Positions 10,069 to 30,446 of a stretch of DNA of 37,916 nt are shown piece by piece. The notes beneath the pieces are model-generated. The model worked only from the letters and a program-made list of their open reading frames with translations, was not told the DNA's origin and made no database searches. Numbering within the stretch: position 1 is the stretch's first letter; each line of letters opens with the position of its first letter. The position numbers and the translations under genes were made by a program. Source of the stretch: a virus (lineage: Duplodnaviria; Caudoviricetes); IMG/VR virus record IMGVR_UViG_3300020161_000179, positions 1 to 37,916 of that record. One strand, 5' to 3'.

Positions 10069-12776
10069 TGTCATATATTGATGCTGTCTTAGATTCCAAC
10101 GCAGATAAAATCTACGTAGTAGAGCGTACTCCTGAGGGTAAACGAGAGTATAAAGAATTTCCTACTAACTATGTTCTTTATTACGAAGACCTTAAAGGAA
10201 AGCATCGCTCTATCTACGGAGATTCCGTGTCTCGTTTCTCTACTCGTAAAAAAGCCGAGTTTGAGAAGGAGCGTAGGATTCATAGGGGCAAGAAGCTATT
10301 TGAAAGCGATGTTAATGTAGTATTCAGATGCCTATCTGATAACTATCTTAGGACCGAACCTCCCAAATTACACACTTGCTTCTTCGATATTGAAGTTGAC
10401 TTTGACCCAGAAAAAGGTTATAGCCCGACTAGTGATCCGTTCAATTCAGTAACCGCAATCACTTGCTATTTGGATTGGCTTGACCAGCTTGTCACTCTCG
10501 TAATTCCCCCGAAGCATATGAGTGATGAGACTGCACAGGACTTAATTAGTGAATTCCCAAACACTTTTTTGTTCCGCAGCGAAATCGAAATGTTCGAAAC
10601 GTTCTTTGATCTCATCGAAGACGCAGATGTTCTTACTGGTTGGAACTCAGAAGGATACGATATTCCCTATTGCGTGAATCGTGTTAAACGGATCATGACT
10701 AAGGATGATACTCGTAGGTTCTGTCTGCTTGGACAGCTTCCAAAGCCTCGCACGTATGAGCGTTTCGGTAAGGAAGAACAGACTTACGATCTTATCGGTC
10801 GTATTCATATGGACTATCTGCAACTTTATAAGAAGTATAACTACGAATCACGCCACAGTTATTCACTTGACGCAATCGGTGAGTATGAATTGGGTGAGCG
10901 TAAGACTGCTTATGAGGGAAGTCTTGATCAGTTGTACAACAAGGACTTTAAGACGTTCGTACAATACAACCGACAAGATACAATGTTGGTGTTCAAAATT
11001 CACGACAAGCTCAAGTTCCTTGAACTAGCAAATGCGCTAGCTCATGAGAACACTGTACTGCTACCAACAGTTATGGGATCGGTGGCAATGATTGAAATGG
11101 CAATTTATAATGAATCACATGAACGAGGATTCATCGTTCCTGACAAAAAGCGTAAGGATGTATACGGTGATGAACAACAAGCAGCCGGTGCTTACGTTGC
11201 TGTCCCGAAGAAAGGGATTCACGAATGGGTCGGAGCAGTTGATATCAACTCACTATACCCCTCAGCAATTAGAGCCCTTAACATGGCCCCAGAAACAATC
11301 GTCGGACAAGTCAGACAAACACTCACTGACCAGTACATGCACGAAAAAAGCATCGCCCTCGCTAAACAAAAGCGTAAGAAAAAGAATGGTGACGATGCTG
11401 ACGGGGTTACTGGAGCGGTTCTTTGGGAAAATCTTTTCGGGTCTCTAGAATATACTGCTATTATGAATCAGGAGCGTGGAACAACTCTTACTATCGACTA
11501 CGAAGATGGTCGTAGTGTAGAAATGTCTGCTGCTGAAATTTGGAAGATGATTTATGATAATCATCGCCCTTGGATTCTTTCGGCTAACGGTACGATCTTC
11601 ACTTATGAGCAAGAAGGAATCATTCCGGGGCTATTGTCTAGGTGGTATTCAGAGCGTAAAGAAACTCAAAAGCTAGCCAGAGAAGCATATGGTACTGACA
11701 AGTTTGATTATTACGATAAGCGCCAGCTAGTTCGTAAGATTTTGCTAAACTCAGCATATGGAGCACTGTTGAACGAACACTGCCGTTTCTATGATAAGCG
11801 AATCGGTCAGTCAGTTACACTATCCGGGCGCCAGATTGTTAAGCATATGATGAGCCAAATCAATGAAACGATTACAGAAACGTATCAGCATGATGGGGAT
11901 GCGATTGTGTATGGTGATACTGACTCTTGCTATTTCACTGCGTTCCCGCTGCTACAAGATCAAATCACATCCGGTGAACTTGAATGGACAAAGGAAGCCT
12001 GTATTGATTTGTATGATCAAATTGCAGAGTTGACTAACGTTAGCTTCCCTTCGTTTATGGAGAAAGCATTTCATTGCCCTCGTAAGAACGGTGAAGTGAT
12101 TAAAGCTGGCCGTGAACTTATCGGTGATCGTACTCTCTTTATAACGAAGAAGCGTTATGCTATTAACATCTTTGACTTAGAAGGTAAACGTCAAGATAAG
12201 GATGGCAAGACTGGCAAGATTAAGGCTATGGGTCTCGATCTTAAGAGAGCGGATACTCCCAAATATGTTCAGGAGTTTCTAATGGAAGTTCTTGAGTCTG
12301 TTCTTGCTGGTAAGCCGCGTGAGGATATCATCGCAAGGATTCGTGACTTCAAGAAGTGGCTTTCTGAGCAAGATAGTTGGACTAAGGGTTCTCCGAAGTC
12401 TGTCAACAATCTGACTAACCATACTGTCAAGTTTGAGAAGACTGGTAAATGTGCGGTCGGACACGCAAGAGCAGCCATTAACTACAACTATTTACGAAAA
12501 ATGAATGGTGACCAATACAGTCAAAAGATTGTTGATGGTATGAAGGTCATTGTTTGTTCACTGAAGGACAACCCTCTCGGATTAACTAATGTTGCGTATC
12601 CCACAGATGAACTTAGACTTCCGCAATGGTTCCTTGATCTTCCGTTTGATGATCTAGACATGGAACGTAAGCTAGTCGATGAGAAGATTGACAATCTCTT
12701 AGGTGTCCTTAAATGGGACATTAGAAGTGATACCAACACGAACAGTATGTTTGATGAATTATTCAGTTTCGGTTAA
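10068..12776 (+). CDS. Family B DNA polymerase (gp43-like)
   Basis: Exo I FFDIE, Exo II GWNSEGYD, Exo III YNRQD; polymerase motifs DINSLYPS, KILLNSAYG, YGDTDS, KKRY. Confidence 0.97.
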   Translation: MSYIDAVLDSNADKIYVVERTPEGKREYKEFPTNYVLYYEDLKGKHRSIYGDSVSRFSTRKKAEFEKERRIHRGKKLFESDVNVVFRCLSDNYLRTEPPKLHTCFFDIEVDFDPEKGYSPTSDPFNSVTAITCYLDWLDQLVTLVIPPKHMSDETAQDLISEFPNTFLFRSEIEMFETFFDLIEDADVLTGWNSEGYDIPYCVNRVKRIMTKDDTRRFCLLGQLPKPRTYERFGKEEQTYDLIGRIHMDYLQLYKKYNYESRHSYSLDAIGEYELGERKTAYEGSLDQLYNKDFKTFVQYNRQDTMLVFKIHDKLKFLELANALAHENTVLLPTVMGSVAMIEMAIYNESHERGFIVPDKKRKDVYGDEQQAAGAYVAVPKKGIHEWVGAVDINSLYPSAIRALNMAPETIVGQVRQTLTDQYMHEKSIALAKQKRKKKNGDDADGVTGAVLWENLFGSLEYTAIMNQERGTTLTIDYEDGRSVEMSAAEIWKMIYDNHRPWILSANGTIFTYEQEGIIPGLLSRWYSERKETQKLAREAYGTDKFDYYDKRQLVRKILLNSAYGALLNEHCRFYDKRIGQSVTLSGRQIVKHMMSQINETITETYQHDGDAIVYGDTDSCYFTAFPLLQDQITSGELEWTKEACIDLYDQIAELTNVSFPSFMEKAFHCPRKNGEVIKAGRELIGDRTLFITKKRYAINIFDLEGKRQDKDGKTGKIKAMGLDLKRADTPKYVQEFLMEVLESVLAGKPREDIIARIRDFKKWLSEQDSWTKGSPKSVNNLTNHTVKFEKTGKCAVGHARAAINYNYLRKMNGDQYSQKIVDGMKVIVCSLKDNPLGLTNVAYPTDELRLPQWFLDLPFDDLDMERKLVDEKIDNLLGVLKWDIRSDTNTNSMFDELFSFG

Positions 12777-12784
12777 ACAAACCA

Positions 12785-12813
12785 TTGACAAAAGTAAAAT
12801 ATTCCACTATAAT
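12785..12813 (+). promoter_or_regulatory. Consensus sigma70 promoter
   Basis: TTGACA-17bp-TATAAT. Confidence 0.85.
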
Positions 12814-12851
12814 AAACATAATACAAACCTAAATATGATAAAGGAAACACA

Positions 12852-13586
12852 ATGAAAGACTATTTGCTTGATTTAATCCAGCACACTCAGGGTTTGGGTG
12901 TGGTTGACCTCGTAAAGATTGACGGTACTGATGCTGAAACTAAGGTTTCTGCGTATGCTGATGATCGTTCAGTTGTCGTAACTGGCATTCTTAACGCTCC
13001 TATTGCTGAATTCAAGGGCGTCTTTGGTATGCCTAACTTGACTAAGCTTAAGACCATTCTTAGCTTTGATGACTTGTACGATGACAACGCTATCATCAAC
13101 GTTGCTACTAAGGATGATGGCGGAACTCAGATTCCGTCTGCTATTCACTTTGAAACTGCAACAGGCGATTTCGTTAACGACTATCGCTTAATGGCAAAGA
13201 ATATTGTTGAAGATAAGGTTAAGTCTGTTTCGTTCCGCGGTACTAATTGGGATGTTCAGTTTGCTCCAACAGTTGATGGCATTCAGCGTCTTAAGAAGCA
13301 GGCTTCGGCTAACAGTGAAGAACTTACTTTCACTACTAAAACTGACAACGGTGATCTTAAGATTTTCTTTGGTGATCCTTCGACTCACTCTGGTAACTTT
13401 GTCTTCCAGCCGGGCGTCGGCGGCACATTGTCCAAGCCTTGGAACTGGCCTGTTAAGGTCTTCCTTGCAATCATGGATCTCCCTGGTGAGAAGACTGTTC
13501 GCTTTGCTGACGCAGGCGCAGCCGAAATCGTTGTTGACAGCGGTTTTGCCACCTGGACTTACTTGTTGCCCGCACAGGCTAAGTAA
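12852..13586 (+). CDS. Sliding clamp (gp45/PCNA-like)
   Basis: 244 aa, two-domain beta-rich pattern, FGMPNLTKLKTIL, C-terminal TYLLPA, adjacent to the polymerase. Confidence 0.7.
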   Translation: MKDYLLDLIQHTQGLGVVDLVKIDGTDAETKVSAYADDRSVVVTGILNAPIAEFKGVFGMPNLTKLKTILSFDDLYDDNAIINVATKDDGGTQIPSAIHFETATGDFVNDYRLMAKNIVEDKVKSVSFRGTNWDVQFAPTVDGIQRLKKQASANSEELTFTTKTDNGDLKIFFGDPSTHSGNFVFQPGVGGTLSKPWNWPVKVFLAIMDLPGEKTVRFADAGAAEIVVDSGFATWTYLLPAQAK

Positions 13587-13942
13587 TGTTGCGGACGGTC
13601 AGCGGAGCTGGTAGATATGTGATGGTCAACGGCGGAATGCCTGCACACACATATATCAACTCTAGTTCAGGTTATATGAATGTTGGAGATGTTAGATTTA
13701 ACACCCAAATGCAGCGACTTGAAGCGTATGACGGAAATATATGGATTGAAATCAGCACTAGCCATGCTAGTGTTGGTTTAACTCCCGATGCTGAAATGGC
13801 TCTTGATTGGGCCATCAAGAAGAAGCATGAAGAATTAGAACTTGATATACTAGCTGAATCTAATTCGACTATTGCTGACCTAGTTGAGCAGAAGAAAGCT
13901 CTTGACCATAAGATCAAGATGATTCAAACGTTAGTAAAATAG
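13586..13942 (+). CDS. Hypothetical protein
   Basis: TAATG coupling to the clamp gene; C-terminal coiled coil. Confidence 0.7.
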   Translation: MLRTVSGAGRYVMVNGGMPAHTYINSSSGYMNVGDVRFNTQMQRLEAYDGNIWIEISTSHASVGLTPDAEMALDWAIKKKHEELELDILAESNSTIADLVEQKKALDHKIKMIQTLVK

Positions 13943-13951
13943 GACTTAGAA

Positions 13952-14614
13952 TTGGATAACACAGAAGAATCTTATGTTGTATCATTTATGCATGGTACTT
14001 CTGGTTCGTTCATTTCAACCATAGTATGGCGAATTATTAATGAACAGGATGAAGGAGTTTTACTTACTCAAAAAAACTCTGCACATCTAGAAAGTCCTTG
14101 GGAACAATCATGGCATCATCCAGAATACGGGGACTGCAATACACCAAACTTATTCACTGGACTTAGCTTTGATAAAATTGGGCTAGTTAAGACCCATGTA
14201 TATCCGGACTATGATCAGTTGCGCTCTGCCCTACCAAACACTAAACTAGTATTAATCATCATGGATGATGCTGATATACTGGAAGTGGCGTGGAATTGCA
14301 TTAAGAAAAGTGATGACGAAAACGAATCTGTCACTGTAGAAGAAGTGCAGCGCAACCTCACTTACCTATACGAACACCGACTGGGCCCTGCTGAATATGA
14401 ATACTTTTGGAAGTTTTGTGACCCTAGTATTGTCCCAGAAGACTTGAAAAGCCGGGTGTTATTGATTAAGTATAGAGATATCTACAAAGAACAAGGTGAT
14501 TCATTTACTGCATTAGAGCAGATTAAAACATTCACCGGGCGAGAAGCTAGTCTAGCGGTACTTGACAGCTATAGAACATACGTAAATAATCGGAACAAGT
14601 TATGGAACAAATAA
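13952..14614 (+). CDS. Sulfotransferase-like P-loop protein
   Basis: VVSFMHGTSGSFIS loop, VKTH, IKYRDI; overlaps the dpdA start. Confidence 0.5.
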   Translation: MDNTEESYVVSFMHGTSGSFISTIVWRIINEQDEGVLLTQKNSAHLESPWEQSWHHPEYGDCNTPNLFTGLSFDKIGLVKTHVYPDYDQLRSALPNTKLVLIIMDDADILEVAWNCIKKSDDENESVTVEEVQRNLTYLYEHRLGPAEYEYFWKFCDPSIVPEDLKSRVLLIKYRDIYKEQGDSFTALEQIKTFTGREASLAVLDSYRTYVNNRNKLWNK

Positions 14615-16167
14615 ATCTCTCAGCATCGCACAACCCAGATTGGGCGTTGTTTTTGCCAGCAGTCTCGTCTTTCTTCATCGCCGGCTTAGGTAAGCAGCGT
14701 GAAGGTGAACAATATTTTGACCCGGCAAGAATCCCTGCTGCATTCAACGGTGATGTTGAGAAGCTAAACTTTCTTAACGAGAAGGAAGGGTTGTATACTT
14801 ACAAGTGGGGTCTGTATTCTGCTGGTCACGCAAACTTAGACATTACGAAGAATGATCATAATGAATCGATCATTCGTAAACGTGATCGCCAGAATACGTT
14901 TATGTTAGGTGACTCTGGTGGATTCCAGATTCTCAAGTGTCAGTGGCCTGCTGATTGGAAGGACCCTAACTGTCCCCGTGCTATGAAGAAGCGTCAACAA
15001 GTTCTTACTTGGATGGATGAATACATGGACTATGGCATGTGCCTTGATATTCCATCACAGTCATTGACAACTTATCATATTCTTGATAAGAAGACCGGCA
15101 AGTCAGCACATGGTATTAGTACGATTGAAGAAGCAATTACTGCTACTCATATTAATAATGAATATTTCGTTGCTAACCGTGATGGTCGATGTAAGTTTCT
15201 AAACGTATTGCAGGGTCGTAATCATGGTCAATCAGATGCATGGTACGAAGAAATGAAGAAGTATTGCGATACTAATGTGTATGGTGATAAGGCATTTAAC
15301 GGTTGGGCATTCGGTGGTCAAAATAAGATTGACATTCACTTGATGCTTAAGCGTCTTGTGGGTATCATTCACGATGGCTTCTTGGAAGAAGGCAAGCATG
15401 ACCTTATTCACTGTCTTGGTACTTCTATCATGGAGTACGCTGTTCTCTTTACTGACATTCAGAGAGCTATTCGTAAGCACCATAATCCTAAGCTACAGAT
15501 TACTTTTGACTGTGCTAGCCCGTTCTTTGCTGCTGCTAAGGGTCTTGCGTATAACAATAATACGTTTGAGCATAACACTAAGTGGACTTATGCAATGGAA
15601 AAGACTGCTGAAAACAAGAGCTATGCCAATGACAATCGTAAGTTTAGTGACGGTGTACTGGCTGACAATATTCATAAAGTCTTCACTGACAGTCCAGTGA
15701 CTGATATGATGTTAATGAAGGACCTTTGCTATCGTGGTCAGGGTTTCTTGGGACAGCATGGCAAAGAAACTAAGACATCTTGGGATACCCTGTCGTATAC
15801 TCTTTTGCAAGCACACAATGTCTATCAGCATATGTCTGCTGTGCAGGAAGCTAATCGTCGCTATGAGCAGGGTATAAAGCCAAAGATGGTAATGGATCCT
15901 CTCGGTAATCTTAACTTCTCGGACATTGTTGATGAGATTTTTTCACTGAAGGATCGTCAACAAAGTCTAGAGCTAATTGAACAATACAGTAAGTTTTGGA
16001 TGCAAATGAAGGCTGGGCAAGGCTTCTCTGGTAAAAAAACTATCAATGCTCATACTATGTTTGACCAGCTTTTCAGCATGGATGAAACAGTAAACGACGA
16101 TCCCGAAGTTGATGATATCATTGAAGACGGCGATGATCTAATAACGGAACTTCTAATTCTTAATTAA
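14602..16167 (+). CDS. dpdA: DNA-guanine transglycosylase (DpdA, TGT fold)
   Basis: TGT motifs GDSGGFQ, CLDIP, VLQG, WAFGG, HCLG, TFDCASP, HN. Lacks the tRNA-TGT CxCxxC zinc motif. Clustered with folE/queD/queE. Confidence 0.85.
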   Translation: MEQINLSASHNPDWALFLPAVSSFFIAGLGKQREGEQYFDPARIPAAFNGDVEKLNFLNEKEGLYTYKWGLYSAGHANLDITKNDHNESIIRKRDRQNTFMLGDSGGFQILKCQWPADWKDPNCPRAMKKRQQVLTWMDEYMDYGMCLDIPSQSLTTYHILDKKTGKSAHGISTIEEAITATHINNEYFVANRDGRCKFLNVLQGRNHGQSDAWYEEMKKYCDTNVYGDKAFNGWAFGGQNKIDIHLMLKRLVGIIHDGFLEEGKHDLIHCLGTSIMEYAVLFTDIQRAIRKHHNPKLQITFDCASPFFAAAKGLAYNNNTFEHNTKWTYAMEKTAENKSYANDNRKFSDGVLADNIHKVFTDSPVTDMMLMKDLCYRGQGFLGQHGKETKTSWDTLSYTLLQAHNVYQHMSAVQEANRRYEQGIKPKMVMDPLGNLNFSDIVDEIFSLKDRQQSLELIEQYSKFWMQMKAGQGFSGKKTINAHTMFDQLFSMDETVNDDPEVDDIIEDGDDLITELLILN

Positions 16168-16176
16168 CCAAAACAA

Positions 16177-16205
16177 TTGTATTCCGTGCAATATAGTGTT
16201 ATAGT
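16177..16205 (+). promoter_or_regulatory. sigma70-type promoter (extended -10)
   Basis: TTGTAT-17bp-TATAGT with TGn; 9 nt before ATG 16215. Confidence 0.6.
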
Positions 16206-16214
16206 GAGAACATA

Positions 16215-16676
16215 ATGACATCAGAAATAAACATCTTACAAGCTCAGGCTGATAAACGTGAACGAATCAAAGACGTTGCAAAACGTATGATTTGGGTTAC
16301 GTTTCAGCGTGAGGGCATTCACAAATATCCCGGTGCAGACACCGATCCAAAATTGGCAACTAGCGACGAATATGACGTTAGTTTCCTAGGTTTCCCGCAT
16401 CGTCACATCTTTCATTTTACAGTGGCGATTCAGGTAACTCACAATGACCGTGACATTGAGTTTATTCAGTTCAAACGATGGCTTGAAAATAGTTTCAAGT
16501 CTGGAGTGATGCAACTTGATCACAAGTCTTGTGAAATGATTTGCGATGATCTATATGAGTTTATCGCAAGTCGCTATCCCAATCGTGACATTGAAATCAC
16601 TGTATCAGAAGATGGTGAGAACGGTGCTACGATTTATTACAACACAACTAAACCTTATCAATTACTCACCATTTAA
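16215..16676 (+). CDS. dpdL: QueD-like T-fold protein, probable 7-carboxy-7-deazaguanine decarboxylase (DpdL-like)
   Basis: LGFPHRHIF (LxxxHRHxF) replaces QueD CxxxHGH; also SCEMI and VSEDGENGA. A canonical queD exists separately at 22266. Confidence 0.7.
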   Translation: MTSEINILQAQADKRERIKDVAKRMIWVTFQREGIHKYPGADTDPKLATSDEYDVSFLGFPHRHIFHFTVAIQVTHNDRDIEFIQFKRWLENSFKSGVMQLDHKSCEMICDDLYEFIASRYPNRDIEITVSEDGENGATIYYNTTKPYQLLTI

Positions 16677-16685
16677 GGATTAAAA

Positions 16686-16913
16686 ATGGCAAAGAATACT
16701 ATCAAGTCGAATGTCCGCGTCAACATGATTTTTGATGAATTGGACAAGTACCGCATCTTCTGCCGCGATCATGGTTATCGCTTTGATGAAGCAGACCTTT
16801 ATAACGGTAGGAGCTATGTTTACCGACAGTTCCAAAAGTTCATTTCAGGTAAGCCAGTAAAGAATCAATGGGAAGTTGATTTGTCTCGACTCAAAGATCA
16901 GGGTCGTGCCTAA
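16686..16913 (+). CDS. Hypothetical protein
   Basis: SD AAGGA, 75 aa, within the operon. Confidence 0.7.
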   Translation: MAKNTIKSNVRVNMIFDELDKYRIFCRDHGYRFDEADLYNGRSYVYRQFQKFISGKPVKNQWEVDLSRLKDQGRA

Positions 16914-17673: not shown

Positions 17674-17674
17674 T

Positions 17675-18853
17675 ATGCGTAAACTATTTTACATGGGACT
17701 TGAAGCGTACAACGCTCGTTACACACTACAGCTTACTGATTGGAATCGCCGTGTCTTTGAAAAGCGCGGTATTGACGTTGTGTACGTCCCGGGCGAGACA
17801 CTTGATAACAGTCAGAAGATTGTAACTGGTCAGGTTCTTGATGCACATGGTCGTTCATACTTTGGTATGAGTCAGATGATGAACCTCGTCAAGATGATGC
17901 AGCAAGGTGAAGTCACTAGTGAAGACGTTATTTACTTTGAAGATATGTTTCAGCCGGGTATTGAATCATTGCCTTATATCATTGACCAGTGCGATGAGGA
18001 TAACATGCCGCGTATCTTTGTTCGTTGTCTTGCACAATCTATTGACCCTGATGACTTTGTTCATGTCTGGGGCATGGATAAGTGGATGGGACTATATGAG
18101 AAGATGGTCAATGAGTTTGCAGACGGAATTCTTGCAACTAACGAAGAAATGGTTGCACATATGAAGATTGCAGGCTGGGAAGCTCCAATCTACAATATCT
18201 CAGGACTTGCATTCGGTAAGAGTGAGGTTATTGAGCGTGTTGGTGGTAAGATTAAACCTTTCAATGATCGTCGTTTGCGTGTTGTCTTTTCAGCACGATG
18301 GGATCAAGAGAAACAGCCTGACTTCTATATGGACTTGATTGAAGCATGGCACGAACGCTATCCAAGCAAGGATGTTGAGTTTGTTATTTGCAGCGGCGGT
18401 GAACTAAAGAGCAACAACGATAGCTATATGGCTCGTACTCACAAGATGGTTGAAAATCGTAAACTGACTATCTATGACAATCTCCCGAAGAACAAGTATT
18501 ACGAAATCCTTAACGATAGCCGCGTTGTGTTCAACTGTGCATTGCAAGACTGGGTGAGCAACACTGTAAGCGAAGCAGATGCATTGGGATGCAATGTACT
18601 CTATCCTGCGTATCGTAGCTTCCCTGAAACTTTTGCAAACGACCCGGAGCGTCTTTACATTCCATGGTCGATTGATGATGCTGTAGCTAAGTTGGATGTA
18701 CTGTTAAAGAAGGCTCATCCGAACATGGGTAAGATTAGTGACTACACTGATGGAACCATTGATCGTATTTGCGACATTCTTGAGGGTAAGGGCGAGAAGT
18801 ATCGTCGTATTAGCAGCGACTACAGAAAACATACTCGTGAAGCGAAGTACTGA
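17675..18853 (+). CDS. GT-B (GT4-like) glycosyltransferase 1
   Basis: FSARWDQEKQP and QDWVSNTVSEADALG (D/E-x7-E acidic motif). Confidence 0.8.
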   Translation: MRKLFYMGLEAYNARYTLQLTDWNRRVFEKRGIDVVYVPGETLDNSQKIVTGQVLDAHGRSYFGMSQMMNLVKMMQQGEVTSEDVIYFEDMFQPGIESLPYIIDQCDEDNMPRIFVRCLAQSIDPDDFVHVWGMDKWMGLYEKMVNEFADGILATNEEMVAHMKIAGWEAPIYNISGLAFGKSEVIERVGGKIKPFNDRRLRVVFSARWDQEKQPDFYMDLIEAWHERYPSKDVEFVICSGGELKSNNDSYMARTHKMVENRKLTIYDNLPKNKYYEILNDSRVVFNCALQDWVSNTVSEADALGCNVLYPAYRSFPETFANDPERLYIPWSIDDAVAKLDVLLKKAHPNMGKISDYTDGTIDRICDILEGKGEKYRRISSDYRKHTREAKY

Positions 18854-18919: not shown

Positions 18920-19600
18920 ATGTCTTATAACAAAACTAAAACCGACCCCGAATTGGGTCAAAAGATTCACGAACACCTCGTCAAGATGGGTGTTGAAACT
19001 CCCACTAAAGACAACTCACTAGACCGCAAAGAAAAGATTGAGGTTATTGAAGCACACTTCAATGGCATTATGAGAGCATTGGGTCTTGACCTAGAAGATG
19101 ACAGTCTTATGGATACGCCGAAGCGTGTTGCTAAGATGTATGTCAACGAAATCTTTTGGGGTCTTGACTATGATGCATTCCCTAAGTGTACAACTGTTGC
19201 GAACAAGATGAACTACGATGAAATGGTCGTAGAGCGTAACGTGAACGTACAATCTAACTGTGAACATCACTTTGTTATCATTGATGGTCTTGCTACAGTA
19301 GCGTATGTACCCAATGAAAAGGTGCTTGGTCTTTCAAAGATTAATCGTATCGTTGAATACTTTGCAAAGCGCCCACAAATTCAAGAGCGTCTTACTGAAC
19401 AGGTATTCCATGCTCTTTGCTACATTCTTGAAACTGAAAACGTTGCAGTCATGATTGATGCCCAGCACTATTGCGTTAAGTCACGTGGTGTTGAGGACAC
19501 AGGTTCTTCGACTGTAACTACTAAGCTCGGTGGTGGATTCAAGACTGACCCTGCTGCTCGTGCAGAGTTTCTTAGCATTGCACGAATGGGTAAGTGTTGA
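18920..19600 (+). CDS. folE: GTP cyclohydrolase I
   Basis: TPKRVAKM, CEHH, GLSKINR, QIQERLT, HYCVKSRG. Confidence 0.97.
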   Translation: MSYNKTKTDPELGQKIHEHLVKMGVETPTKDNSLDRKEKIEVIEAHFNGIMRALGLDLEDDSLMDTPKRVAKMYVNEIFWGLDYDAFPKCTTVANKMNYDEMVVERNVNVQSNCEHHFVIIDGLATVAYVPNEKVLGLSKINRIVEYFAKRPQIQERLTEQVFHALCYILETENVAVMIDAQHYCVKSRGVEDTGSSTVTTKLGGGFKTDPAARAEFLSIARMGKC

Positions 19601-21686: not shown

Positions 21687-21692
21687 TTTTAC

Positions 21693-21721
21693 TTGACAAC
21701 GGTGTTTAAATAGTATATAGT
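21693..21721 (+). promoter_or_regulatory. sigma70-type promoter
   Basis: TTGACA-17bp-TATAGT. Confidence 0.8.
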
Positions 21722-21746
21722 AAATTATTAATAGAAAGAGAAACCG

Positions 21747-22202: not shown

Positions 22203-22265
22203 CAGTGGTCTTTGACACTCATCCCCACTATAAACATTCTGCGTGTCATCTAAAGGAGAATAAAG

Positions 22266-22772
22266 ATGACAAAATATGAACCAGTAAGTTACAAGTATAC
22301 AAGTACTAAAGAATATCACGATTCGTTTCCGTGTGCATATCGTCAATGGCGCGCCGACAGTCATTGCAATAACATTCATGGCTATTCATTTACTATCAAG
22401 GTATACTTTGGTGCTGATACACTAGATGCACGAAACTGGTGTGCAGACTATGGTGGTCTAAAGGACTTGAAGGCAATTCTTGAAGACCAGTTCGACCACA
22501 CACTTCTTGTTGCAGAAGATGATCCTGATATGGATGTGTTCAAGCTGCTTCAAGAGCGTAATATGGCAAAGTTGACTATCATTCCTGCAACTGGCTGTGA
22601 AGCACTTGCTGATATGGTATACAAGTTTATCAACGGTGTCTATATCCCCGACCATTGGGGTAAGGGTGAAGCTGAACGACTCTGGTGCTATCGTGTAGAA
22701 ATCCGCGAGACACAGAGCAACATGGCTTTCCGTGAAGGTCATCGTGAATGGAATGAAGATTTGCTAGGATGA
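22266..22772 (+). CDS. queD: 6-carboxy-5,6,7,8-tetrahydropterin synthase
   Basis: HCNNIHGY, DYGGLK, FDHTLL, CEALA, RET; SD AAGGAG. Confidence 0.9.
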   Translation: MTKYEPVSYKYTSTKEYHDSFPCAYRQWRADSHCNNIHGYSFTIKVYFGADTLDARNWCADYGGLKDLKAILEDQFDHTLLVAEDDPDMDVFKLLQERNMAKLTIIPATGCEALADMVYKFINGVYIPDHWGKGEAERLWCYRVEIRETQSNMAFREGHREWNEDLLG

Positions 22773-22939: not shown

Positions 22940-23075
22940 GGCACTAGGCGAGAAGGCTAGTGATTGTGATGCCGAATCTGATAAAGTTGCTTGGATTCGC
23001 ACTTTCCTAGTCTTTCAAGCTGTACTTGCAAATATTTTTCTCATAGTAAACGTTATAAGGCATTGGAATGGTTAA
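22917..23075 (+). CDS. Small membrane protein (52 aa; not in ORF track)
   Basis: MLKRIWFKALGEKASDCDAESDKVAWIRT...VIRHWNG; one TM helix. Confidence 0.65.
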   Translation: MLKRIWFKALGEKASDCDAESDKVAWIRTFLVFQAVLANIFLIVNVIRHWNG

Positions 23076-23099
23076 CAAAGTAGTAATGATAGAGATTAT

Positions 23100-23267
23100 A
23101 TGACTAGTATTTCCCCGCTATTTAGTATGTACACTACTCAAGAGTTACATGATAAGGTTCGTGAATTTCGGATAAGTGATAATAAATCAACCCAATCTCT
23201 CGCAGACTTTATCGAATCAGAGTTGCGTAAAGGTGAAACCGGTTTGATGGAGAGATTATATGATTAA
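23100..23267 (+). CDS. Small hypothetical protein (55 aa; not in ORF track)
   Basis: MTSISPLFSMY...; fills the gap and overlaps the PRTase start. Confidence 0.5.
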   Translation: MTSISPLFSMYTTQELHDKVREFRISDNKSTQSLADFIESELRKGETGLMERLYD

Positions 23268-23817
23268 GAAAGTATATTACACTGACAAACAGATTGATGG
23301 CATGATCCATGATATCATTCGTCAAATGAACAATGATAACTGGATGCCTGATTATGTTGTCGGTCTTACTAGGGGCGGACTTAATCCTGCTCTAAAGATT
23401 AGTCATTATCTCAACATTCCGATGGAGACTCTTAAAGTCAGTTTGCGTGACGGTGGCGAGTGCGAAACTAACTGCTGGATGGCAGAAGATGCATATGGAT
23501 ACATTCAGGCATCTGCATTCCCGCGACCAGAAGGAGAAGCAACTAGCGATCCATCATTGCGTAAGAATATTCTTATCGTAGATGATATTAACGATACCGG
23601 TGCTACTCTCAATTGGATTAAACAAGATTGGGCTTCCGGTTGCCTACCAAATGAGATTGAGGCATGGAATAGTGTTTGGAATGACACTGTTCGTTTTGCT
23701 GTAATAGTAGATAATGATGCAAGTCCATTTCAAGTGAATTATTTTGGAACAAGCATCAACAAAGCAGAAGACCCTCAATGGATTGTGTTCCCTTGGGAAG
23801 AATGGTGGAAAGGATGA
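23260..23817 (+). CDS. Type I purine phosphoribosyltransferase (xanthine/guanine PRTase-like)
   Basis: VGLTRGG, PRPP loop ILIVDDINDTGATL, WIVFPWE. Confidence 0.9.
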   Translation: MIKKVYYTDKQIDGMIHDIIRQMNNDNWMPDYVVGLTRGGLNPALKISHYLNIPMETLKVSLRDGGECETNCWMAEDAYGYIQASAFPRPEGEATSDPSLRKNILIVDDINDTGATLNWIKQDWASGCLPNEIEAWNSVWNDTVRFAVIVDNDASPFQVNYFGTSINKAEDPQWIVFPWEEWWKG

Positions 23818-24893
23818 ATTTTTTACTGCGCCCTGAATCTGCTTATGAAAGGCCAACCTCTTATTTAAAAGATTTTGGGTGCATTAGACCCGGTAAATAT
23901 ATTGAAATTCATGCCACAGGATCAGTATCAATATGCTGTTTTACCTGGCTACCTAAATTTTGCGGCAACATATTGACTGATTCTGTAGAGGAGATATTTA
24001 ACAATATAACTCGAATGTCAATCATAGAAGATATGTCTAAAGGAAAGTTTACGCATTGCAATGATCATTGCCCAATGTTATCAAATTTACTTAGTGGAAA
24101 TGATTATCATCCATTGATAGTTCCTTCTGAAAATTATGAAGCTAGTTTATCTGCATTTCCGTTTAACATTGGGTTTAGCTATGACTCATCTTGCAACTTA
24201 CAATGTCCTAGTTGCCGACCCGGTTTGCAATTCACTAAGATGGGGGAAAACACAACACTTGATAAAATCCACGCTAAAGTTAAGGAATTAGTTTACTATC
24301 TCCTTAATCAAAATGAGCAAGTGTTGTTGCAGATATCAGGTTCATCTGATCCTTTTGCAAGCCCTACTTTTTGGGCATACCTGCAGGAATTGAGTAGTTT
24401 AGGATTTAATGAAAATTTAAAGATTGAATTAATGACTAACGGACTGTTGATGAACGAAGAAGTTTGGGGAAAGATAAAACCTCTTTGGAAAAATATATGT
24501 AGAATTGTAGTCAGCACTGATGCAGTTTCTCAGGAAACATATGCAATAGTCAGAAAAAACGGTCACATTAGTAGACTAAAAGAAAACTTATCTTTGCTTA
24601 ATGAAAAGATTCGTCGGGGTGATTTTCCAAATCTATATAATTGGCAAACAAGTTTTACTGTGCAAAAGGCTAATTACCACGAAATAAAAGAGTACGCCCA
24701 GTGGCAATCGTCATTGGATACTTTAAAAAATATTTCATTTAGTATGATTGCACAGTGGGGTCATTTAAATGACGAAAAATTCTTAGAAATGTCGCTTGAT
24801 GACTCAGATGTTATCTTACTAAAACAAATTTTAAGTGATGATATTTTTTCAAACGATAGCATCGTTTTAGGAAACTTAAGCACATACCGATAA
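23814..24893 (+). CDS. Radical SAM protein with an N-terminal SPASM/twitch-like domain
   Basis: C...GSVSICC...GNI...C.. followed by CNLQCPSC, SSDPF, TNG, VSTDA. ATG 23814. Confidence 0.85.
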   Translation: MNFLLRPESAYERPTSYLKDFGCIRPGKYIEIHATGSVSICCFTWLPKFCGNILTDSVEEIFNNITRMSIIEDMSKGKFTHCNDHCPMLSNLLSGNDYHPLIVPSENYEASLSAFPFNIGFSYDSSCNLQCPSCRPGLQFTKMGENTTLDKIHAKVKELVYYLLNQNEQVLLQISGSSDPFASPTFWAYLQELSSLGFNENLKIELMTNGLLMNEEVWGKIKPLWKNICRIVVSTDAVSQETYAIVRKNGHISRLKENLSLLNEKIRRGDFPNLYNWQTSFTVQKANYHEIKEYAQWQSSLDTLKNISFSMIAQWGHLNDEKFLEMSLDDSDVILLKQILSDDIFSNDSIVLGNLSTYR

Positions 24894-24916
24894 AACGGTA
24901 GAAAGGATGATTGACA

Positions 24917-25099
24917 ATGGACGTAATTAGTGTTATAGCTATAGTTGTATTCTGTGTAGTGGCATCTATGTTTTTATATGGAATGTGGGTACTAGAAGAT
25001 GACAGATATCAATTTAGAAAAAAGCACGGCATTGATCCTAAATATCACGGCTGGATTGTGAAAGACAAAGAAGAAAATGACAAAGATCAAACTAAGTGA
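24917..25099 (+). CDS. Small single-TM protein
   Basis: Hydrophobic N-terminal helix; SD AAGGA upstream. Confidence 0.55.
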   Translation: MDVISVIAIVVFCVVASMFLYGMWVLEDDRYQFRKKHGIDPKYHGWIVKDKEENDKDQTK

Positions 25100-25946
25100 A
25101 TTGTTCTACAGCATCCAGGGTGAAGGTCGGTACATGGGTGTGCCGTCTGTTTTCCTTAGAACATATGGATGCAATTTCAAATGCGCCGGATTCGGCATGC
25201 CAAAAGGTGAATTATCAAGTGAAAGAGAAGCAGTCAATCCAGAAGACTATAAAGAATATGGTACCCTCCCGCTCGTCACTACAGGATGTGATTCCTACGC
25301 ATCCTGGGATCCTCGCTTCAAGCATCTTTCTCCCAGCAGGGATGTTGATACTATTGTCAGCGACATTATGGAACTACTACCGTTTAAAGAATGGCGCGAA
25401 GAACACCTCGTCATCACAGGAGGAGAACCACTCCTCGGATGGCAACGAGCCTACCCAGAACTCCTAAGTCACCCTAAGATGCAGCAGCTTCACGAGATTA
25501 CTTTTGAAACTAATGGTACGCAGCCATTGCATCCTGAACTCTTTGACTATCTTGAACAATGGTGGTGGGATGGCGGCAAGCCGGGCTATGGATCAGCTAA
25601 TCGTGATCGTGAAATTACATTTAGTGTGAGTGCTAAGTTGAGTTGTTCAGGTGAAAAGGCAGAAGATGCCATTAAGCCTCAGGTAGTAGTTGACTACCAA
25701 AGCGTAGGTCACGTATATCTTAAGTTTGTTATCGCAACAGAAGATGATGCTAAAGAAGCATTAGCAGCAGTTGAACAATATCGTGATGCAGGGTTTGTAG
25801 GTAATGTTTATTTCATGCCCGTAGGAGGTGTTGAGAGTGTTTACCATCTTAATAATCGCACTGTCGCTGACCTTGCCATGAAGAACGGTGTTCGTTATAG
25901 TGATCGTCTACAGGTTCCTTTGTTTAAGAATGCCTGGGCGACTTAA
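25077..25946 (+). CDS. queE: 7-carboxy-7-deazaguanine synthase (radical SAM)
   Basis: ELFYSIQGEG, FLRTYGCN, CDS, ITGGEP, ETNGT, SAKL, LKFVI. Confidence 0.93.
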   Translation: MTKIKLSELFYSIQGEGRYMGVPSVFLRTYGCNFKCAGFGMPKGELSSEREAVNPEDYKEYGTLPLVTTGCDSYASWDPRFKHLSPSRDVDTIVSDIMELLPFKEWREEHLVITGGEPLLGWQRAYPELLSHPKMQQLHEITFETNGTQPLHPELFDYLEQWWWDGGKPGYGSANRDREITFSVSAKLSCSGEKAEDAIKPQVVVDYQSVGHVYLKFVIATEDDAKEALAAVEQYRDAGFVGNVYFMPVGGVESVYHLNNRTVADLAMKNGVRYSDRLQVPLFKNAWAT

Positions 25947-25947
25947 C

Positions 25948-26193
25948 ATGGGATTTATGCTGAAAACAGCACAAGACGATATTGACTGGGTAAACGAACC
26001 GATACCCTACGGCATTAATACTACCAAATATAGATTATCATTGTTGCCTCGTAAGTGTAATTCAAGCCATAAAAATATTTGGTTTAAATTTTCTTACCGT
26101 GTTCGTCATACATATCACGAAATGCATGGCAGCTCTATCGAAGACCGCTGGTATAATAAGTACGAATATATTAAGTTAAGGTTACAGGGATGA
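25948..26193 (+). CDS. Hypothetical protein
   Basis: ATG 25948; ATGA overlap with the downstream GT. Confidence 0.55.
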   Translation: MGFMLKTAQDDIDWVNEPIPYGINTTKYRLSLLPRKCNSSHKNIWFKFSYRVRHTYHEMHGSSIEDRWYNKYEYIKLRLQG

Positions 26194-27518
26194 AACGAAT
26201 AGGATTTCTTGTCAGTTCACAGACTTTAATTCCGCATGGTGGTATTGGACAGTTCACAAAAAGCTTTTGTGAACTGATGGATAGTCACGGAATCTATGTG
26301 GATATTATTACTGATAAGAGTCCTCAGGGCGTTGCTGATGAGTTTATTAAAGAACTCAATGCCAATATTATTTATCCATCTGATCCGCAGAGGTATACAG
26401 ATCACAGTGCTATCTTTATGTATGAGGATAGCTATTGCTATGAGCGCATGGCTAACTTTCGTGACGCAACGATTAAAGCACTAACTACTAATATCTATGA
26501 TGCATTTGTTTGTAACACTTATGAGACGGTTCAAGTAATCTCTACCCTAGGATTGTCTGAGTTTATTCAAACTATCGCATACACGCATTTGGAAAGTCAA
26601 ATCTTCAAGGATACTAAGAATCCGTTTCTTGATAGTGTTAACGACATGATGCGGCTACAGTTACGTATGCCCGGTGTCACGATTGGCACACAAAGCATGT
26701 TTAATAAATTGCATTTTGAAAATGCTGTCCATCTTCCCATTCCTCTTCCGGAGAAAGGGCTGCTTCAAGAATATGACAATGACCGTGAAGGCGTTCTGTT
26801 CATTGGACGTTGGGAAGAGGGTAAGAATCCTGAACTTTATCTCGACTTGATTGAACAGACTAAGCTGCCCGCTCGTGTGATGACTAATGCAAACGGGGCT
26901 AAGAAGTTTGAAGAACGATTGAAGAAGATCGGTGTTGACTATAAAATTGCTGTAAGCGTCATTGGCCAAAAGAAGGTAGACTTCATCACAAGCTGCCGAG
27001 TAGCATTCAATCCCAGTACTGTAGAAAGCTACGGTATTGCTTTCTATGAGCAAATGATTCAACTCCCAACATTTGCACTAATTAATCAACGCTGGACGCA
27101 GAACTTCCCAAGCACACAATTCTTTACTACAAGTAAGCGCAATATGGCAGAAGATATTAAAGCTGCATATAATCAATATCCTACTAGCAAATCATGGTAT
27201 GCTGCTTACGATTCAGTAAAACATTTTAATATTCACGAAGAAGCAGTATTCCATAAGTGGAATCACTGCCTTGACGAGTTTGAATCTAAGCAGTCCAATA
27301 CCAATACTGCTAAGATTTGCGATGAGACTACAGTTAAATATGCTGACTTTATTGCTGCTTTGGGGCGGCGCGTCATTTGTATTGACGATATCAGATCGGT
27401 GTTGGCAAACAAACACAAGTTTAGAGTAATATATACTGACAAGGATACTTGGTTGACTAAGGACCCTTCATTTGAACCTAAAGAAGAAGTAACTGGTATG
27501 GGGCTATTTGAGTTTTGA
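26190..27518 (+). CDS. GT-B (GT4-like) glycosyltransferase 2
   Basis: HGGIG, FIGRWEEGKN, PSTVESYGIAFYE (E-x7-E). Confidence 0.87.
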   Translation: MKRIGFLVSSQTLIPHGGIGQFTKSFCELMDSHGIYVDIITDKSPQGVADEFIKELNANIIYPSDPQRYTDHSAIFMYEDSYCYERMANFRDATIKALTTNIYDAFVCNTYETVQVISTLGLSEFIQTIAYTHLESQIFKDTKNPFLDSVNDMMRLQLRMPGVTIGTQSMFNKLHFENAVHLPIPLPEKGLLQEYDNDREGVLFIGRWEEGKNPELYLDLIEQTKLPARVMTNANGAKKFEERLKKIGVDYKIAVSVIGQKKVDFITSCRVAFNPSTVESYGIAFYEQMIQLPTFALINQRWTQNFPSTQFFTTSKRNMAEDIKAAYNQYPTSKSWYAAYDSVKHFNIHEEAVFHKWNHCLDEFESKQSNTNTAKICDETTVKYADFIAALGRRVICIDDIRSVLANKHKFRVIYTDKDTWLTKDPSFEPKEEVTGMGLFEF

Positions 27519-27519
27519 T

Positions 27520-28383
27520 ATGAAAAAGATTTTAATTACTGGTTGTTCAGGCTACATTGGTTCACACCTCTGTAAGTTACTTGAAAATGAATATGAAGTT
27601 CACGGACTAGATGTTCGTGAACCTCGGCATCCTGTTAAAAAGTTTCATCAGATTGACATCAATCGTCAAATTGCACTAGATGAGGAATACGATACAGTAG
27701 TCCATCTAGCTGCTCTTGTCAACGTGGGTGAAAGTGAGCAGATTCCGATTCAGTATTACATTACAAATGTGAATGGCACAATGAATGTAGTCAATCGGAT
27801 CAAGACTGCAAACTTCATCTTTGCTTCTACTGGCGCTGCTGAATTATGTGAGAGTGCATATGGTATTAGTAAGAGGGCAGCAGAGGATGTGGTCAAGGAA
27901 TATTGCACCAAACATCGTGAAACACCATATACAATCTTTAGATTCTACAATGTAATCGGTACCTCGGGTTATGCTCCCACTAATCCAGACGGTCTGATGT
28001 ACAATCTTATGAAGTCAATTGATACTAGAGAGTTTACTATCTTTGGTAATGATTACAATACACCAGACGGCACCTGTGTTCGTGATTATGTACACGTTGA
28101 TGAAATTTGCTATGCACTTAAGGTAGCAATTGAAAAACCAGCAAATCAGATTGAGTGCCTGGGACATGGGGTAGGCCATACTGTTAAGGAAATGGTAGAC
28201 ATCTTTGAGAAGGTGAACGAGAAGATTCTGTATGCTAACAACGAAGATGCAATCGACATCAAGATTGGTCCTCGTCGTACCGGTGATGCGGAACACAGCG
28301 TGTTGGAAGATGTTTCTAACTACCTAGTTAATATGTATTCCATCGAAGACTTATTAAGGCTTGACATTGGTAGTAAAGGGTGA
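27520..28383 (+). CDS. NAD-dependent NDP-sugar epimerase/dehydratase (GalE-like)
   Basis: TGCSGYIG, HLAA, YGISK, RFYN, DGTCVRDYVHV, RRTGD. Confidence 0.9.
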   Translation: MKKILITGCSGYIGSHLCKLLENEYEVHGLDVREPRHPVKKFHQIDINRQIALDEEYDTVVHLAALVNVGESEQIPIQYYITNVNGTMNVVNRIKTANFIFASTGAAELCESAYGISKRAAEDVVKEYCTKHRETPYTIFRFYNVIGTSGYAPTNPDGLMYNLMKSIDTREFTIFGNDYNTPDGTCVRDYVHVDEICYALKVAIEKPANQIECLGHGVGHTVKEMVDIFEKVNEKILYANNEDAIDIKIGPRRTGDAEHSVLEDVSNYLVNMYSIEDLLRLDIGSKG

Positions 28384-28389
28384 TAGTGT
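28361..28389 (+). promoter_or_regulatory. sigma70-type promoter, probably giving a leaderless transcript
   Basis: TTGACA-17bp-TAGTGT, 6 nt before ATG 28396. Confidence 0.55.
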
Positions 28390-28395
28390 GAAAGA

Positions 28396-28986
28396 ATGAA
28401 TATATTCTATGTAGATGATGACCCTCAGGTCGCTGCTCGTAACATGGTTGACCGCCATGTAGTTAAAATGATTCTAGAGACTGCTCAATTGCTTTCTACT
28501 GCCCATCGTGTTATTGACGGTGAGGAGTATGTAGGACAATCACAGTCTGGTCGCAAAGCTAAACGTTGGAGGTTATCAGGTAATGTTGACGCTATTATGT
28601 ATTCTGCTACTCATATTAATCATCCTTCAGCAGTTTGGGTTCGTGAAAACTCTGCTAACTACGATTGGTTGTATGATCATCTTTTGGCTCTTGGTCGTGA
28701 GTATACCCATCGTTATGGTCGTACTCACCTTACTATTGATAAGCTAAAAGACATTCTCAAAGATTCTCCACAGAATATCAAGCAATCTAATGTAATGACT
28801 AAGATGCCATCTTGTATGGATAAGCAGTACATTGTTAGCTTAGACCCAATTACCAACTATCGCAACTATTACAATTACGGAAAGACTGACTTGCTTCGCT
28901 GGTCTAATCGTACTCCCCCGCAGTGGATTGATGGTACGGTCATCATGACTGACGGTAAGAAGCAGATATATACTATACAGAGGTAA
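28396..28986 (+). CDS. Pyrimidine-dimer DNA glycosylase family protein (DenV-like)
   Basis: MNIF...DRHVVKMILETAQLL...HINHPSAVWVR...EYTHRYGRTH. Confidence 0.75.
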   Translation: MNIFYVDDDPQVAARNMVDRHVVKMILETAQLLSTAHRVIDGEEYVGQSQSGRKAKRWRLSGNVDAIMYSATHINHPSAVWVRENSANYDWLYDHLLALGREYTHRYGRTHLTIDKLKDILKDSPQNIKQSNVMTKMPSCMDKQYIVSLDPITNYRNYYNYGKTDLLRWSNRTPPQWIDGTVIMTDGKKQIYTIQR

Positions 28987-28990
28987 AAAC

Positions 28991-29404
28991 ATGTTTGATA
29001 AAATTAAGAAGTGGTTTGCTCCAGAAGAAGTTAAGCCAGAACCCGAAGTCAAGAAGACACCTAGGGCTAAGAAGCCTGAGCTAACTCCTAAAGAGAAGGC
29101 AACATTAGCCGGGGAACCCTATATTTCTATTCTAAGTGTTGAACTCGATCCGGGTGACATTAACAACGGTTCGTTTGAACTTGACTGGAATGATAAGTTT
29201 GTAGCTAACTTGATTAAGCAAGGCTACAAGATTCGTGCTGATGATACAGATGCACAGATTGTTGATCGCTGGTTCCAAACTGTATGCCGCAACATTGCAC
29301 TTGAAGTGTATGAGCAACAGCAGGCTGATCCAGACAATCGTGAATCAGAAATGCGTGTCATTCAGCAGCGTGATTTAGGTAATGGATTTACAGAAGTTAG
29401 CTGA
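28991..29404 (+). CDS. Hypothetical protein
   Basis: SD GAGG; FELDWNDKF. Confidence 0.75.
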   Translation: MFDKIKKWFAPEEVKPEPEVKKTPRAKKPELTPKEKATLAGEPYISILSVELDPGDINNGSFELDWNDKFVANLIKQGYKIRADDTDAQIVDRWFQTVCRNIALEVYEQQQADPDNRESEMRVIQQRDLGNGFTEVS

Positions 29405-29405
29405 C

Positions 29406-30446
29406 ATGAAAAATAAAAAATACCAAATCACTCATTTAGGCAAAACCCTCAATACCGACCATTGGTATGACTTGCCAGAAGATAAGTGCTTGCAATTGAA
29501 GGCTGCGTATTACGAAAAGCCTGATTTTGATTTGGTTAAGAAAAATCTAGAATCAGTATATAATGGCGGTACTGTTATAAGTACCATAAATAGTTACTAC
29601 GTAAAAGACCTCATGGCTAAAGTGAAGCTAGAGTCTCCGCGCTGGTCTATTGAAGAAGTATTTGAATCTATAGACTTGATTAGATACTTTTGGAGTAGGG
29701 TACTTTCTAGCGATAAAGTATATCCGAAGACCGATTCAGATATCAAGAACTTTGAGGCGGCGTTGCGTCTTAGTGGTGGTGGTGTGGCAATGAAGCCGTC
29801 TAATTATCCAATCAAGTCAGTTGACTCTATTCTATCTAGGTATAATATCAACGGTAAATACTATGACTTCTCTTGTGGCTGGGGCGTTAGAATGCTTTCG
29901 TCATTAAGAAACAATGTTGAGTATTACGGCACTGACCCGAATACTATGTTAGTAGAACGCCTCAATCAAATGGCTACTGATTACAACACTGTAAATGGTA
30001 CATCTGCAAAGTATGACATTCGGTGTCATGGTTCTCAAACATTTGTCCCGGAGTGGGAAAACACCATCGGCGTAGCGTTCAGTAGTCCTCCGTACTTCAA
30101 TCTTGAAGATTATAAAATAGGTGACCAGTCGTTTAAGCCTGGCACTACATATCAAGAATGGCTAGATACGTATCTACGACCCACAATAGAAAACATCAAC
30201 AAGTACCTTGTTGATGATGGCAAGATGCTAATCAACATTAAAGATTTTCTAGACTATAAGTTATGTGCTGATACAAGAGCCATTGCAGAAAGTTTAGGCT
30301 TTCATTATGTAGAAACACTCACATTGAAAAACATAACTAGACCAAGTGCTAAAGTTGACTTGAACACAGATGAAGGCATTATGGTATTCTCAAAAAAGCC
30401 TGAGGAGCCTATCCCCTCACCGATGAGTTTATTTACTTTTGGATAA
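29406..30446 (+). CDS. Amino (m4C/m6A) DNA methyltransferase
   Basis: YDFSCGWG (motif I) then SSPPYF (motif IV). Confidence 0.85.
   Translation: MKNKKYQITHLGKTLNTDHWYDLPEDKCLQLKAAYYEKPDFDLVKKNLESVYNGGTVISTINSYYVKDLMAKVKLESPRWSIEEVFESIDLIRYFWSRVLSSDKVYPKTDSDIKNFEAALRLSGGGVAMKPSNYPIKSVDSILSRYNINGKYYDFSCGWGVRMLSSLRNNVEYYGTDPNTMLVERLNQMATDYNTVNGTSAKYDIRCHGSQTFVPEWENTIGVAFSSPPYFNLEDYKIGDQSFKPGTTYQEWLDTYLRPTIENINKYLVDDGKMLINIKDFLDYKLCADTRAIAESLGFHYVETLTLKNITRPSAKVDLNTDEGIMVFSKKPEEPIPSPMSLFTFG

Follow-up and report, generated by a model that had tools for sequence, protein, structure and literature searches.

Clamp-binding-like C-terminal peptides on predicted DNA-modifying enzymes of an uncultured giant phage

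Introduction

That sliding-clamp clients carry short binding motifs is textbook knowledge, and T4 gp33 is among the proteins with a motif that binds the gp45 clamp. On gp43, gp55, and T4 DNA ligase, the gp45-binding motif described for T4 and RB69 reads [S/T]LDFLF (PMC6212786), while DNMT1 is bound to PCNA by a PIP box, Qxx[I/L]xxFF (PMC9690074). What is new here is the presence of clamp-like tails on a DpdA transglycosylase, a glycosyltransferase (GT2), and a DNA methyltransferase (MTase), all encoded by IMGVR_UViG_3300020161_000179, a 37.9-kb viral record from an uncultured giant phage, the whole of which was analyzed and is referred to as the window. On comparative grounds, we consider it probable, at roughly 75%, that these tails are clamp-binding peptides and that DpdA, GT2, and the MTase dock on the phage clamp.

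The likeness to T4 and RB69 lies in a short hydrophobic peptide, at the C terminus, near it, or in a flexible loop, that is shared with the polymerase of a phage with a PCNA-superfamily clamp; the differences are that the consensus here is [ST]FDxLF[ST]FG and that the putative clients are base-modifying enzymes rather than polymerase, ligase, and transcription factors. As with DNMT1, a clamp-binding motif would recruit a DNA methyltransferase to newly replicated DNA, but that case concerns eukaryotic C5 maintenance methylation, whereas the enzymes considered here are a phage N4/N6-type MTase, a transglycosylase, and a glycosyltransferase. The base exchange itself has its closest parallel in the DpdA3/DpdL pathway for 7-deazaguanine (dDG) described for Cellulophaga phage phiST and predicted for PA5oct (PMC10516641). 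Like these phages, the window encodes FolE, QueD, QueE, DpdL, and a DpdA3-class enzyme and no QueC; its DpdA, however, has 521 amino acids and a tail, compared with 259 amino acids in phiST, and its pathway genes are interspersed with sugar-nucleotide genes and the genes of two glycosyltransferases.

Sliding clamps are encoded by group 2 jumbo phages (PMC7824862). No clamp is mentioned in the main text of Cui et al. (PMC10516641), and the preprint by Pyle et al. names gp45 as a neighboring gene. A literature search that did not extend to subscription journals or bioRxiv supplements turned up no paper describing such tails on DpdA or on methyltransferases of phages.

Results

The first-pass annotation of the window had listed four proteins with a clamp-binding-like C-terminal peptide, and translation placed all four peptides where it had located them. 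The family B DNA polymerase (902 amino acids; positions 10068 to 12776; Pfam PF00136/PF03104, phrog_262), which is 43 to 47% identical to the polymerases of Phosso, Atu_ph07, and 121Q, ends in SMFDELFSFG (12744 to 12776). DpdA (14602 to 16167) carries TMFDQLFSM (16054 to 16080), followed by 28 mostly acidic residues; GT2 (26190 to 27518), a GT4-like GT-B enzyme with an extra C-terminal module of ~65 amino acids, ends in GMGLFEF (27495 to 27518); and the MTase (29382 to 30446; PF01555, PADLOC MTase_II) ends in PMSLFTFG (30420 to 30446) after an appended linker of ~18 amino acids. These genes, like the clamp, pathway, GT1, and epimerase genes described below, are on the plus strand. Only the LF pair is common to all four peptides: DpdA resembles the front half of the polymerase tail (xFDxLF), and the MTase resembles its back half (LFxFG, directly before the stop codon). 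The strict T4 consensus, [S/T]LDFL[F/Y], is not matched, with MFDELF, MFDQLF, MGLF, and MSLF in the window versus SLDFLFG and SLDFLYE in T4 (gp43 and gp55 tails taken from NC_000866).

Chance levels were assessed against 1465 open reading frames (ORFs) of at least 70 amino acids from four related genomes (G001 to G004) and the window, with patterns that had been drawn up after the tails were seen. F[DN][DEQSNK]LF occurs in the last 45 residues of 7 of these ORFs (three polymerases and four DpdAs), where ~0.3 would be expected; LFxF[GE] stands at the extreme C terminus of 6 (five polymerases and the window MTase) and LFx[FW] within the last few residues of 9 (five polymerases, three GT2 proteins, and the window MTase). 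The DpdA and MTase motifs exceed chance. Since a bare terminal LF is not rare (28/1465 ORFs), the motif of the window GT2 is not significant by itself, and the case for GT2 rests on the conservation seen among related sequences. For the same kind of count, terminal LF was uninformative as a test, being not above chance, and stricter patterns were adopted because a loose FxxLF pattern also matched the epimerase (33/50), QueE (12/56), and one small ORF (7/26).

Conservation in homologue alignments, a check that the first-pass annotation had proposed, held for the polymerase (91 of its 92 distinct orthologue tails have terminal [LFM]F), for DpdA (see below), and for GT2 (53/53, 93/94, and 67/67 distinct tails in overlapping sets); for the MTase, also treated below, most relatives lack a motif. 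Among the 157 families found in at least three of the five genomes, terminal [LFM]F is present in every member only for the polymerase, GT2, and one structural family.

The putative docking partner is the 244-amino-acid product of 12852 to 13586, whose gene adjoins polB. Its AlphaFold2 (AF2) model (pLDDT 96.6, from a 120-sequence alignment) shows a two-domain clamp fold with an interdomain loop; the best Foldseek match was PCNA (E 1.1e-10, TM 0.67), and VIA-align paired 218 of the 244 residues with A. fulgidus PCNA (Z 18.5, rmsd 3.2) and gave Z 16.1 for T4 gp45, at a structural-alignment identity of just 12%, every row down to Z 8.6 being a clamp. The earlier designation of this protein as a clamp is thus borne out as far as the fold is concerned: by its model, it belongs to the PCNA/gp45 superfamily, and a trimeric ring and a processivity role are predicted. 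A sequence search with the clamp against the PDB gave no match, and Pfam, NCBIfam, and PADLOC returned nothing informative for the clamp or DpdA; two cultured homologues already carry a clamp annotation. The columns V41 to V43, F128, and Y237 to P240, which by PCNA topology we take to form the peptide pocket, are hydrophobic in 82 to 100% of 120 clamp homologues. An RFC-like clamp-loader ATPase is encoded in the relative G001 (phrog_168, E 4e-74), with similar ORFs in G002 to G004; the loader lies outside the window. Relatives with 61 to 72% clamp identity are records of 244 to 352 kb, and, of the phages in culture, those nearest to the window are Phosso, Vibrio 2.275.O, and members of the PA5oct/Paride group, which we take to belong to jumbo group 2.2.

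DpdA has a DSGGFQ motif, and its model has a TGT fold: the Foldseek matches shown at E ≤ 0.001, weak but consistent (best 4.9e-5), are all tRNA-guanine transglycosylases (TGTs). At 33.6% identity, DpdA matches the PA5oct protein encoded two genes before dpdL; gene order identifies that protein as QCG76197, an entry under DpdA3 in DS1 of Cui 2023 (PMC10516641); direct BLAST of the window DpdA against phiST DpdA3 gave no match, and the link runs through PA5oct. In the model, residues 470 to 521 mostly have pLDDT < 50, with a short helix (483 to 490) over the motif, which is a short hydrophobic peptide in a predicted disordered tail. Among 158 distinct tails at 60% identity or above (2 rows without an anchor were dropped), the motif is followed by a tail in 131 and is itself the C terminus in 10; in 5 others the sole copy has relocated to the terminus, 2 carry both copies, and 10 miss the strict pattern, most of them having variants. 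The motif survives loss of the tail and can relocate by 25 to 40 residues into unrelated sequence. Most DpdAs have a second conserved element after the motif (window positions 16081 to 16167; IEDSDDxMxEVL, with a predicted helix at 511 to 519), which is dispensable in some orthologues.

Covariation with the polymerase was analyzed in 16 phages that have both proteins, RHph_I1_18 (polymerase tail without the pattern) and BCSR5 (no PolB found; DpdA tail-less) being excluded and phiST remaining unpaired. In 9 of the 16, the DpdA tail window fits the motif of its own polymerase better than any internal window does, and the mean score was 17.7 for cognate pairs, 13.3 for noncognate pairs within a clade, and 11.2 across clades. 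Within-clade permutation gave p = 0.0027 (n = 16; 0.019 and 0.038 for the single clades), values that overstate independence, given the common descent of motifs in related phages. The polymerase and DpdA motifs read, respectively, HFDSLFGW and SFNSLFD in Paride, NNTDLFDW and NNNDLFGW in Vibrio 2.275.O, STLDDFFS and ASLDSFFD in BUCT-ZZ01, SSLESLFG and QSLEELFG in BUDD, PSLDDLFE and TTLDELFE in ACP17, and SSLEDLFG and NSLDDLFG in Mendera. As the T4-like cases belong to the DpdA2 subfamily and have T4-type SLxx[LF]F tails, the link extends over two DpdA subfamilies and two clamp families. In Vibrio phage nt-1, DpdA2 is tail-less, but ArcS2 (L201:1498-2178) ends in NSLANFF, like the gp43 of that phage (TLESFFG), and may act on DNA at the clamp.

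It could be argued that some other common partner (for example, single-stranded DNA-binding protein, the loader, or a scaffold) binds the tails, or that each tail folds back onto the enzyme that carries it, the likeness to the polymerase tail reflecting a convergent, generic hydrophobic anchor. Unrelated structural proteins do retain terminal DFF or PFF, and the motif of most DpdAs comes right after a conserved segment, where packing against the core is conceivable. The relocation of the DpdA motif into unrelated sequence, its position in a low-confidence region of the model, and its tracking of the cognate polymerase tail within clades all speak against this reading, and we regard a different partner or fold-back as improbable. 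That DpdA binds the clamp appears very likely on this comparative evidence.

GT2 gave a weak PF00534 match in 51 of 51 aligned members, and its nearest Atlas clusters are viral, followed by GT4. L439 is kept in 51/51 and F440 in 50/51 aligned sequences, within variable flanks and after a linker of variable length, while GT1 (17675 to 18853; GT-B, weak PF00534/PF13524), which has no clamp-like tail and served as an internal negative control, has terminal LF in none of its 73 distinct tails. The GT2 orthologue of the T4-like cyanophage BUCT-ZZ01 (42% identity) ends in GSLEDFFND, a full gp43-type motif to be compared with the gp43 tail of that phage given above, and the GT1 of BUCT-ZZ01 has no tail; a more distant GT2 homologue in BUDD lacks the tail, and no further T4-like GT2 orthologues were found in viral contigs. 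Likeness of a tail to the cognate polymerase is seen for the nine DpdAs and for the BUCT-ZZ01 GT2, the window GT2 and MTase sharing only LFxF with theirs. In all 64 loci that have 7 kb of upstream sequence, folE and queD precede GT2. The GT1 gene is 65% identical to its BUCT-ZZ01 counterpart, far above other shared genes, and in Paride, Phosso, BUDD, and BCSR5, GT1-like genes neighbor dpdA/dpdL, which suggests that a module was transferred and that GT1 takes part in the base pathway.

The MTase gene, an accessory gene absent from five of five large related records, was examined through the 114 distinct tails among its best 120 homologues. Most (79) lack a motif and extend beyond the last strand by a median of 4 residues; LFxF is the ending of 22, after 16 to 18 residues, 10 have QxxLF after 18 to 27 residues, and 3 have another LF, whereas the QxxLF pattern occurs at 0 of 33577 internal positions. 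Because extensions and LF motifs occur together and most relatives stop short, the tail behaves, in these alignments, as an add-on, switching between the ending of this phage's polymerase and a motif of the bacterial beta-clamp type. None of the 10 MTase loci retrieved with P0361 had a QxxLF-type tail.

The bacterial beta-clamp motif has the consensus QL[S/D]LF (PMC9690074), and with it the window tails share the terminal LF core. This raises the alternative that DpdA alone docks on the phage clamp, whereas GT2 and the MTase use their short hydrophobic-[SD]-LF tails to bind DnaN, the beta clamp of the host, or to bind both clamps. The 10 QxxLF tails of MTase relatives, as Q[LIVMT][STDN][LIM]F, do resemble the bacterial consensus, GT2 and MTase tails frequently read LSLF, MDLF, or ISLF, and group 2.2 jumbo phages have, in addition, genes for a split Pol III alpha (PMC7824862). 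However, the Gln of the beta-clamp motif is missing from the tails of this lineage, and those of the window add x-F-G as the phage polymerase does; the MTase ending, LFxFG, is identical to that of the polymerase; and the BUCT-ZZ01 GT2 carries the gp43-type motif. We therefore judge the host clamp to be an improbable target and, from the tail comparisons, binding to the phage clamp to be likely for the MTase and only slightly less so for GT2.

A further alternative, that the GT2 and MTase tails are a coincidence or reflect a constraint on the DNA (T-rich gene ends or overlap with the next ribosome-binding site), draws on the chance frequency of terminal LF genome-wide and on the gene border itself: the GT2 stop codon abuts the start of the NAD-dependent sugar epimerase gene (27520 to 28383; PF01370), and the motif Phe codon is TTT in 54 of 56 cases. 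A DNA-level constraint nevertheless appears unlikely, since the motif leucine of polymerase, DpdA, and GT2 is found with every one of the six Leu codons. Moreover, although the epimerase gene is the usual one 3' of GT2 (85 of 130 loci), the GT2 LF is retained in the 45 loci with a different downstream gene and despite variable linker length, and in the MTase, extensions and motifs appear together. Taken with this evidence, coincidence or DNA constraint seems highly improbable.

Besides shared descent, several observations weigh against docking on the phage clamp. Seven of the 16 DpdAs fail the strict covariation test, those of nt-1, 1.081.O, Ahp1, and D479 being tail-less and those of pf16, Phosso, and L337 weak. 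Scored against the window polymerase 8-mer, GT2 (-1) and the MTase (2) are low, compared with 34 for DpdA. A profile trained solely on polymerase tails and used to rank all ORFs of each genome placed DpdA at 3/404, 2/343, 2/374, 7/293, and 2/51, with no single-protein score surviving genome-wide correction (expected counts of at least 0.17) and with GT2 outside the top 8 in G002 to G004. In G001, [LMF]F is not enriched in the last six residues (11/435 versus 9.5 expected). A baseplate-hub family (3/3) and terminase (3/4) likewise retain terminal hydrophobic pairs, which limits the specificity of such short motifs, those of GT2 and the MTase spanning just 2 to 4 residues. For GT2, no hydroxylated-base pathway was found in the five relatives (one canonical ThyA and zero C5-MTases; TET/JBP were not searched). 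In T4, alpha-glucosyltransferase (alpha-GT) reportedly interacted with gp45 in vitro (Sommer, 2004), likewise an instance of the notion that the clamp couples DNA glycosylation to replication. Pull-downs found no such interaction (bioRxiv 10.64898/2025.12.06.692756). The two cases differ in that T4 alpha-GT and beta-GT lack an LDFLF-type tail, whereas GT2 has an LF tail; C-terminal His tags as the cause of the negative T4 result were considered and set aside, alpha-GT having no terminal motif. A GT2 profile did not match T4 alpha-GT or beta-GT (E 4.4 and 1.6, in a small set), and GT-B enzymes diverge strongly. As for the suggestion that its tail marks GT2 as acting on DNA, no acceptor base is evident, and we give glycosylation of DNA by GT2 slightly better than even odds.

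The remaining pathway genes comprise dpdL (16215 to 16676; proposed 7-carboxy-7-deazaguanine [CDG] decarboxylase with an LxxxHRHxF motif, 34% identical to phiST CGPG_00067, and without a tail), folE (18920 to 19600; GTP cyclohydrolase I, PF01227), queD (22266 to 22772; PF01242, phrog_2389), and queE (25077 to 25946; phrog_2076). Overall, the polB-clamp-dpdA block is followed by dpdL, folE, queD, queE, the two glycosyltransferases, the sugar-nucleotide genes, and the MTase. With DpdL present and QueC above the cutoff in none of the five relatives (three of them at least 90% complete; the window is a fragment), 7-deazaguanine is the predicted DNA base.

Further observations concern other tails and neighboring sequence. 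A 135-amino-acid Phosso protein of no assigned function (XYS97386; L182:12520-12927), encoded between folE and queE and without a PHROG match, ends in NLNDLFDFG, close to the Phosso polymerase tail, TFNDLFTF. In G001, a protein encoded between queE and GT2 (L174:8795-9895), presumably an S-adenosylmethionine synthetase, ends in VDLF. gp26-like baseplate-hub proteins (L163:12096-12926 and L187:9880-10641) keep a terminal DFF[G/E/V] in jumbo and T4-like phages. Paride (homing endonuclease; L160:8605-13831), L061, and G004 (L254) have a split or interrupted polymerase gene, and the C-terminal piece in Paride and G004 retains the tail. At the start of the window, positions 107 to 3615 encode a FecR-domain protein, a CHASE2-adenylate/guanylate cyclase, and, judged by eye, a small outer-membrane beta-barrel-like protein; 3' of the MTase, positions 30514 to 32188 hold two sporadic ORFs (a 410-amino-acid protein of no assigned function and a MUG113-domain protein), possibly a mobile cassette. 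The gap 5' of queD (22203 to 22265) shows, by eye, AGTGG/CCACT and GACAC/GTGTC pairings that end beside the ribosome-binding site; Rfam gave zero matches anywhere in the window, this gap included.

Discussion

The first-pass annotation had proposed that base exchange, glycosylation, and methylation are tethered to the sliding clamp. Comparison gives docking good support for DpdA and moderate support for GT2 and the MTase, binding itself being what we infer from it. By analogy with T4/RB69 and PCNA biology, the LF pair would insert into a hydrophobic pocket under the interdomain loop of the clamp, on which the polymerase likely docks by its own tail. Clamps left on nascent DNA would then keep the modifiers there longer and concentrate them locally; the enzymes would act on newly replicated phage DNA and make modification faster and more complete: DpdA would exchange G for 7-deazaguanine supplied by FolE, QueD, QueE, and DpdL, the MTase would add N4-methylcytosine or N6-methyladenine, and GT2 would put a sugar on some DNA base.

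The same annotation had gone on to propose that tethering restricts modification to phage DNA, and this part stands less firmly. Selectivity for phage DNA through tethering is plausible, but tail-less DpdAs weaken the idea, among them phiST DpdA3, tail-less by its sequence, in a phage whose genome is reported as fully substituted (PMC10516641), and we think it unlikely that tethering is the chief reason that host DNA is spared. For the same reason, a tether is not needed for DpdA activity in general, and the tail as the cause of complete substitution by DpdA3 was rejected, the enzymes of phiST, Ahp1, and D479 being tail-less. As an explanation for failed expression in E. coli, the tail is neutral, since the tailed ACP17 enzyme and the tail-less phiST enzyme both failed.

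We speculate, rather tentatively and with the odds against it, that phages have repeatedly grafted the clamp peptide of their polymerase onto modifiers and that DpdA, followed by GT2 on the same clamp, makes a sugar-bearing deazaguanine not described before, with the clamp directing this chemistry to phage DNA. The findings touch on the question of how enzymes that modify DNA after replication reach phage DNA and modify it to saturation ahead of attack by nucleases of the host, for which one classic coupling case, that of T4 alpha-GT and gp45, has recently been contradicted. A transferable motif on DpdA2, DpdA3, a GT4-like transferase, and an N4/N6 MTase would make replication coupling testable in cultured phages, with Paride/PA5oct, ACP17, BUDD, Mendera, and BUCT-ZZ01 well suited, and suggests adding the cognate clamp where DpdA enzymes fail in E. 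coli. The motif could also flag the DNA-acting members among the thousands of unassigned phage glycosyltransferases.

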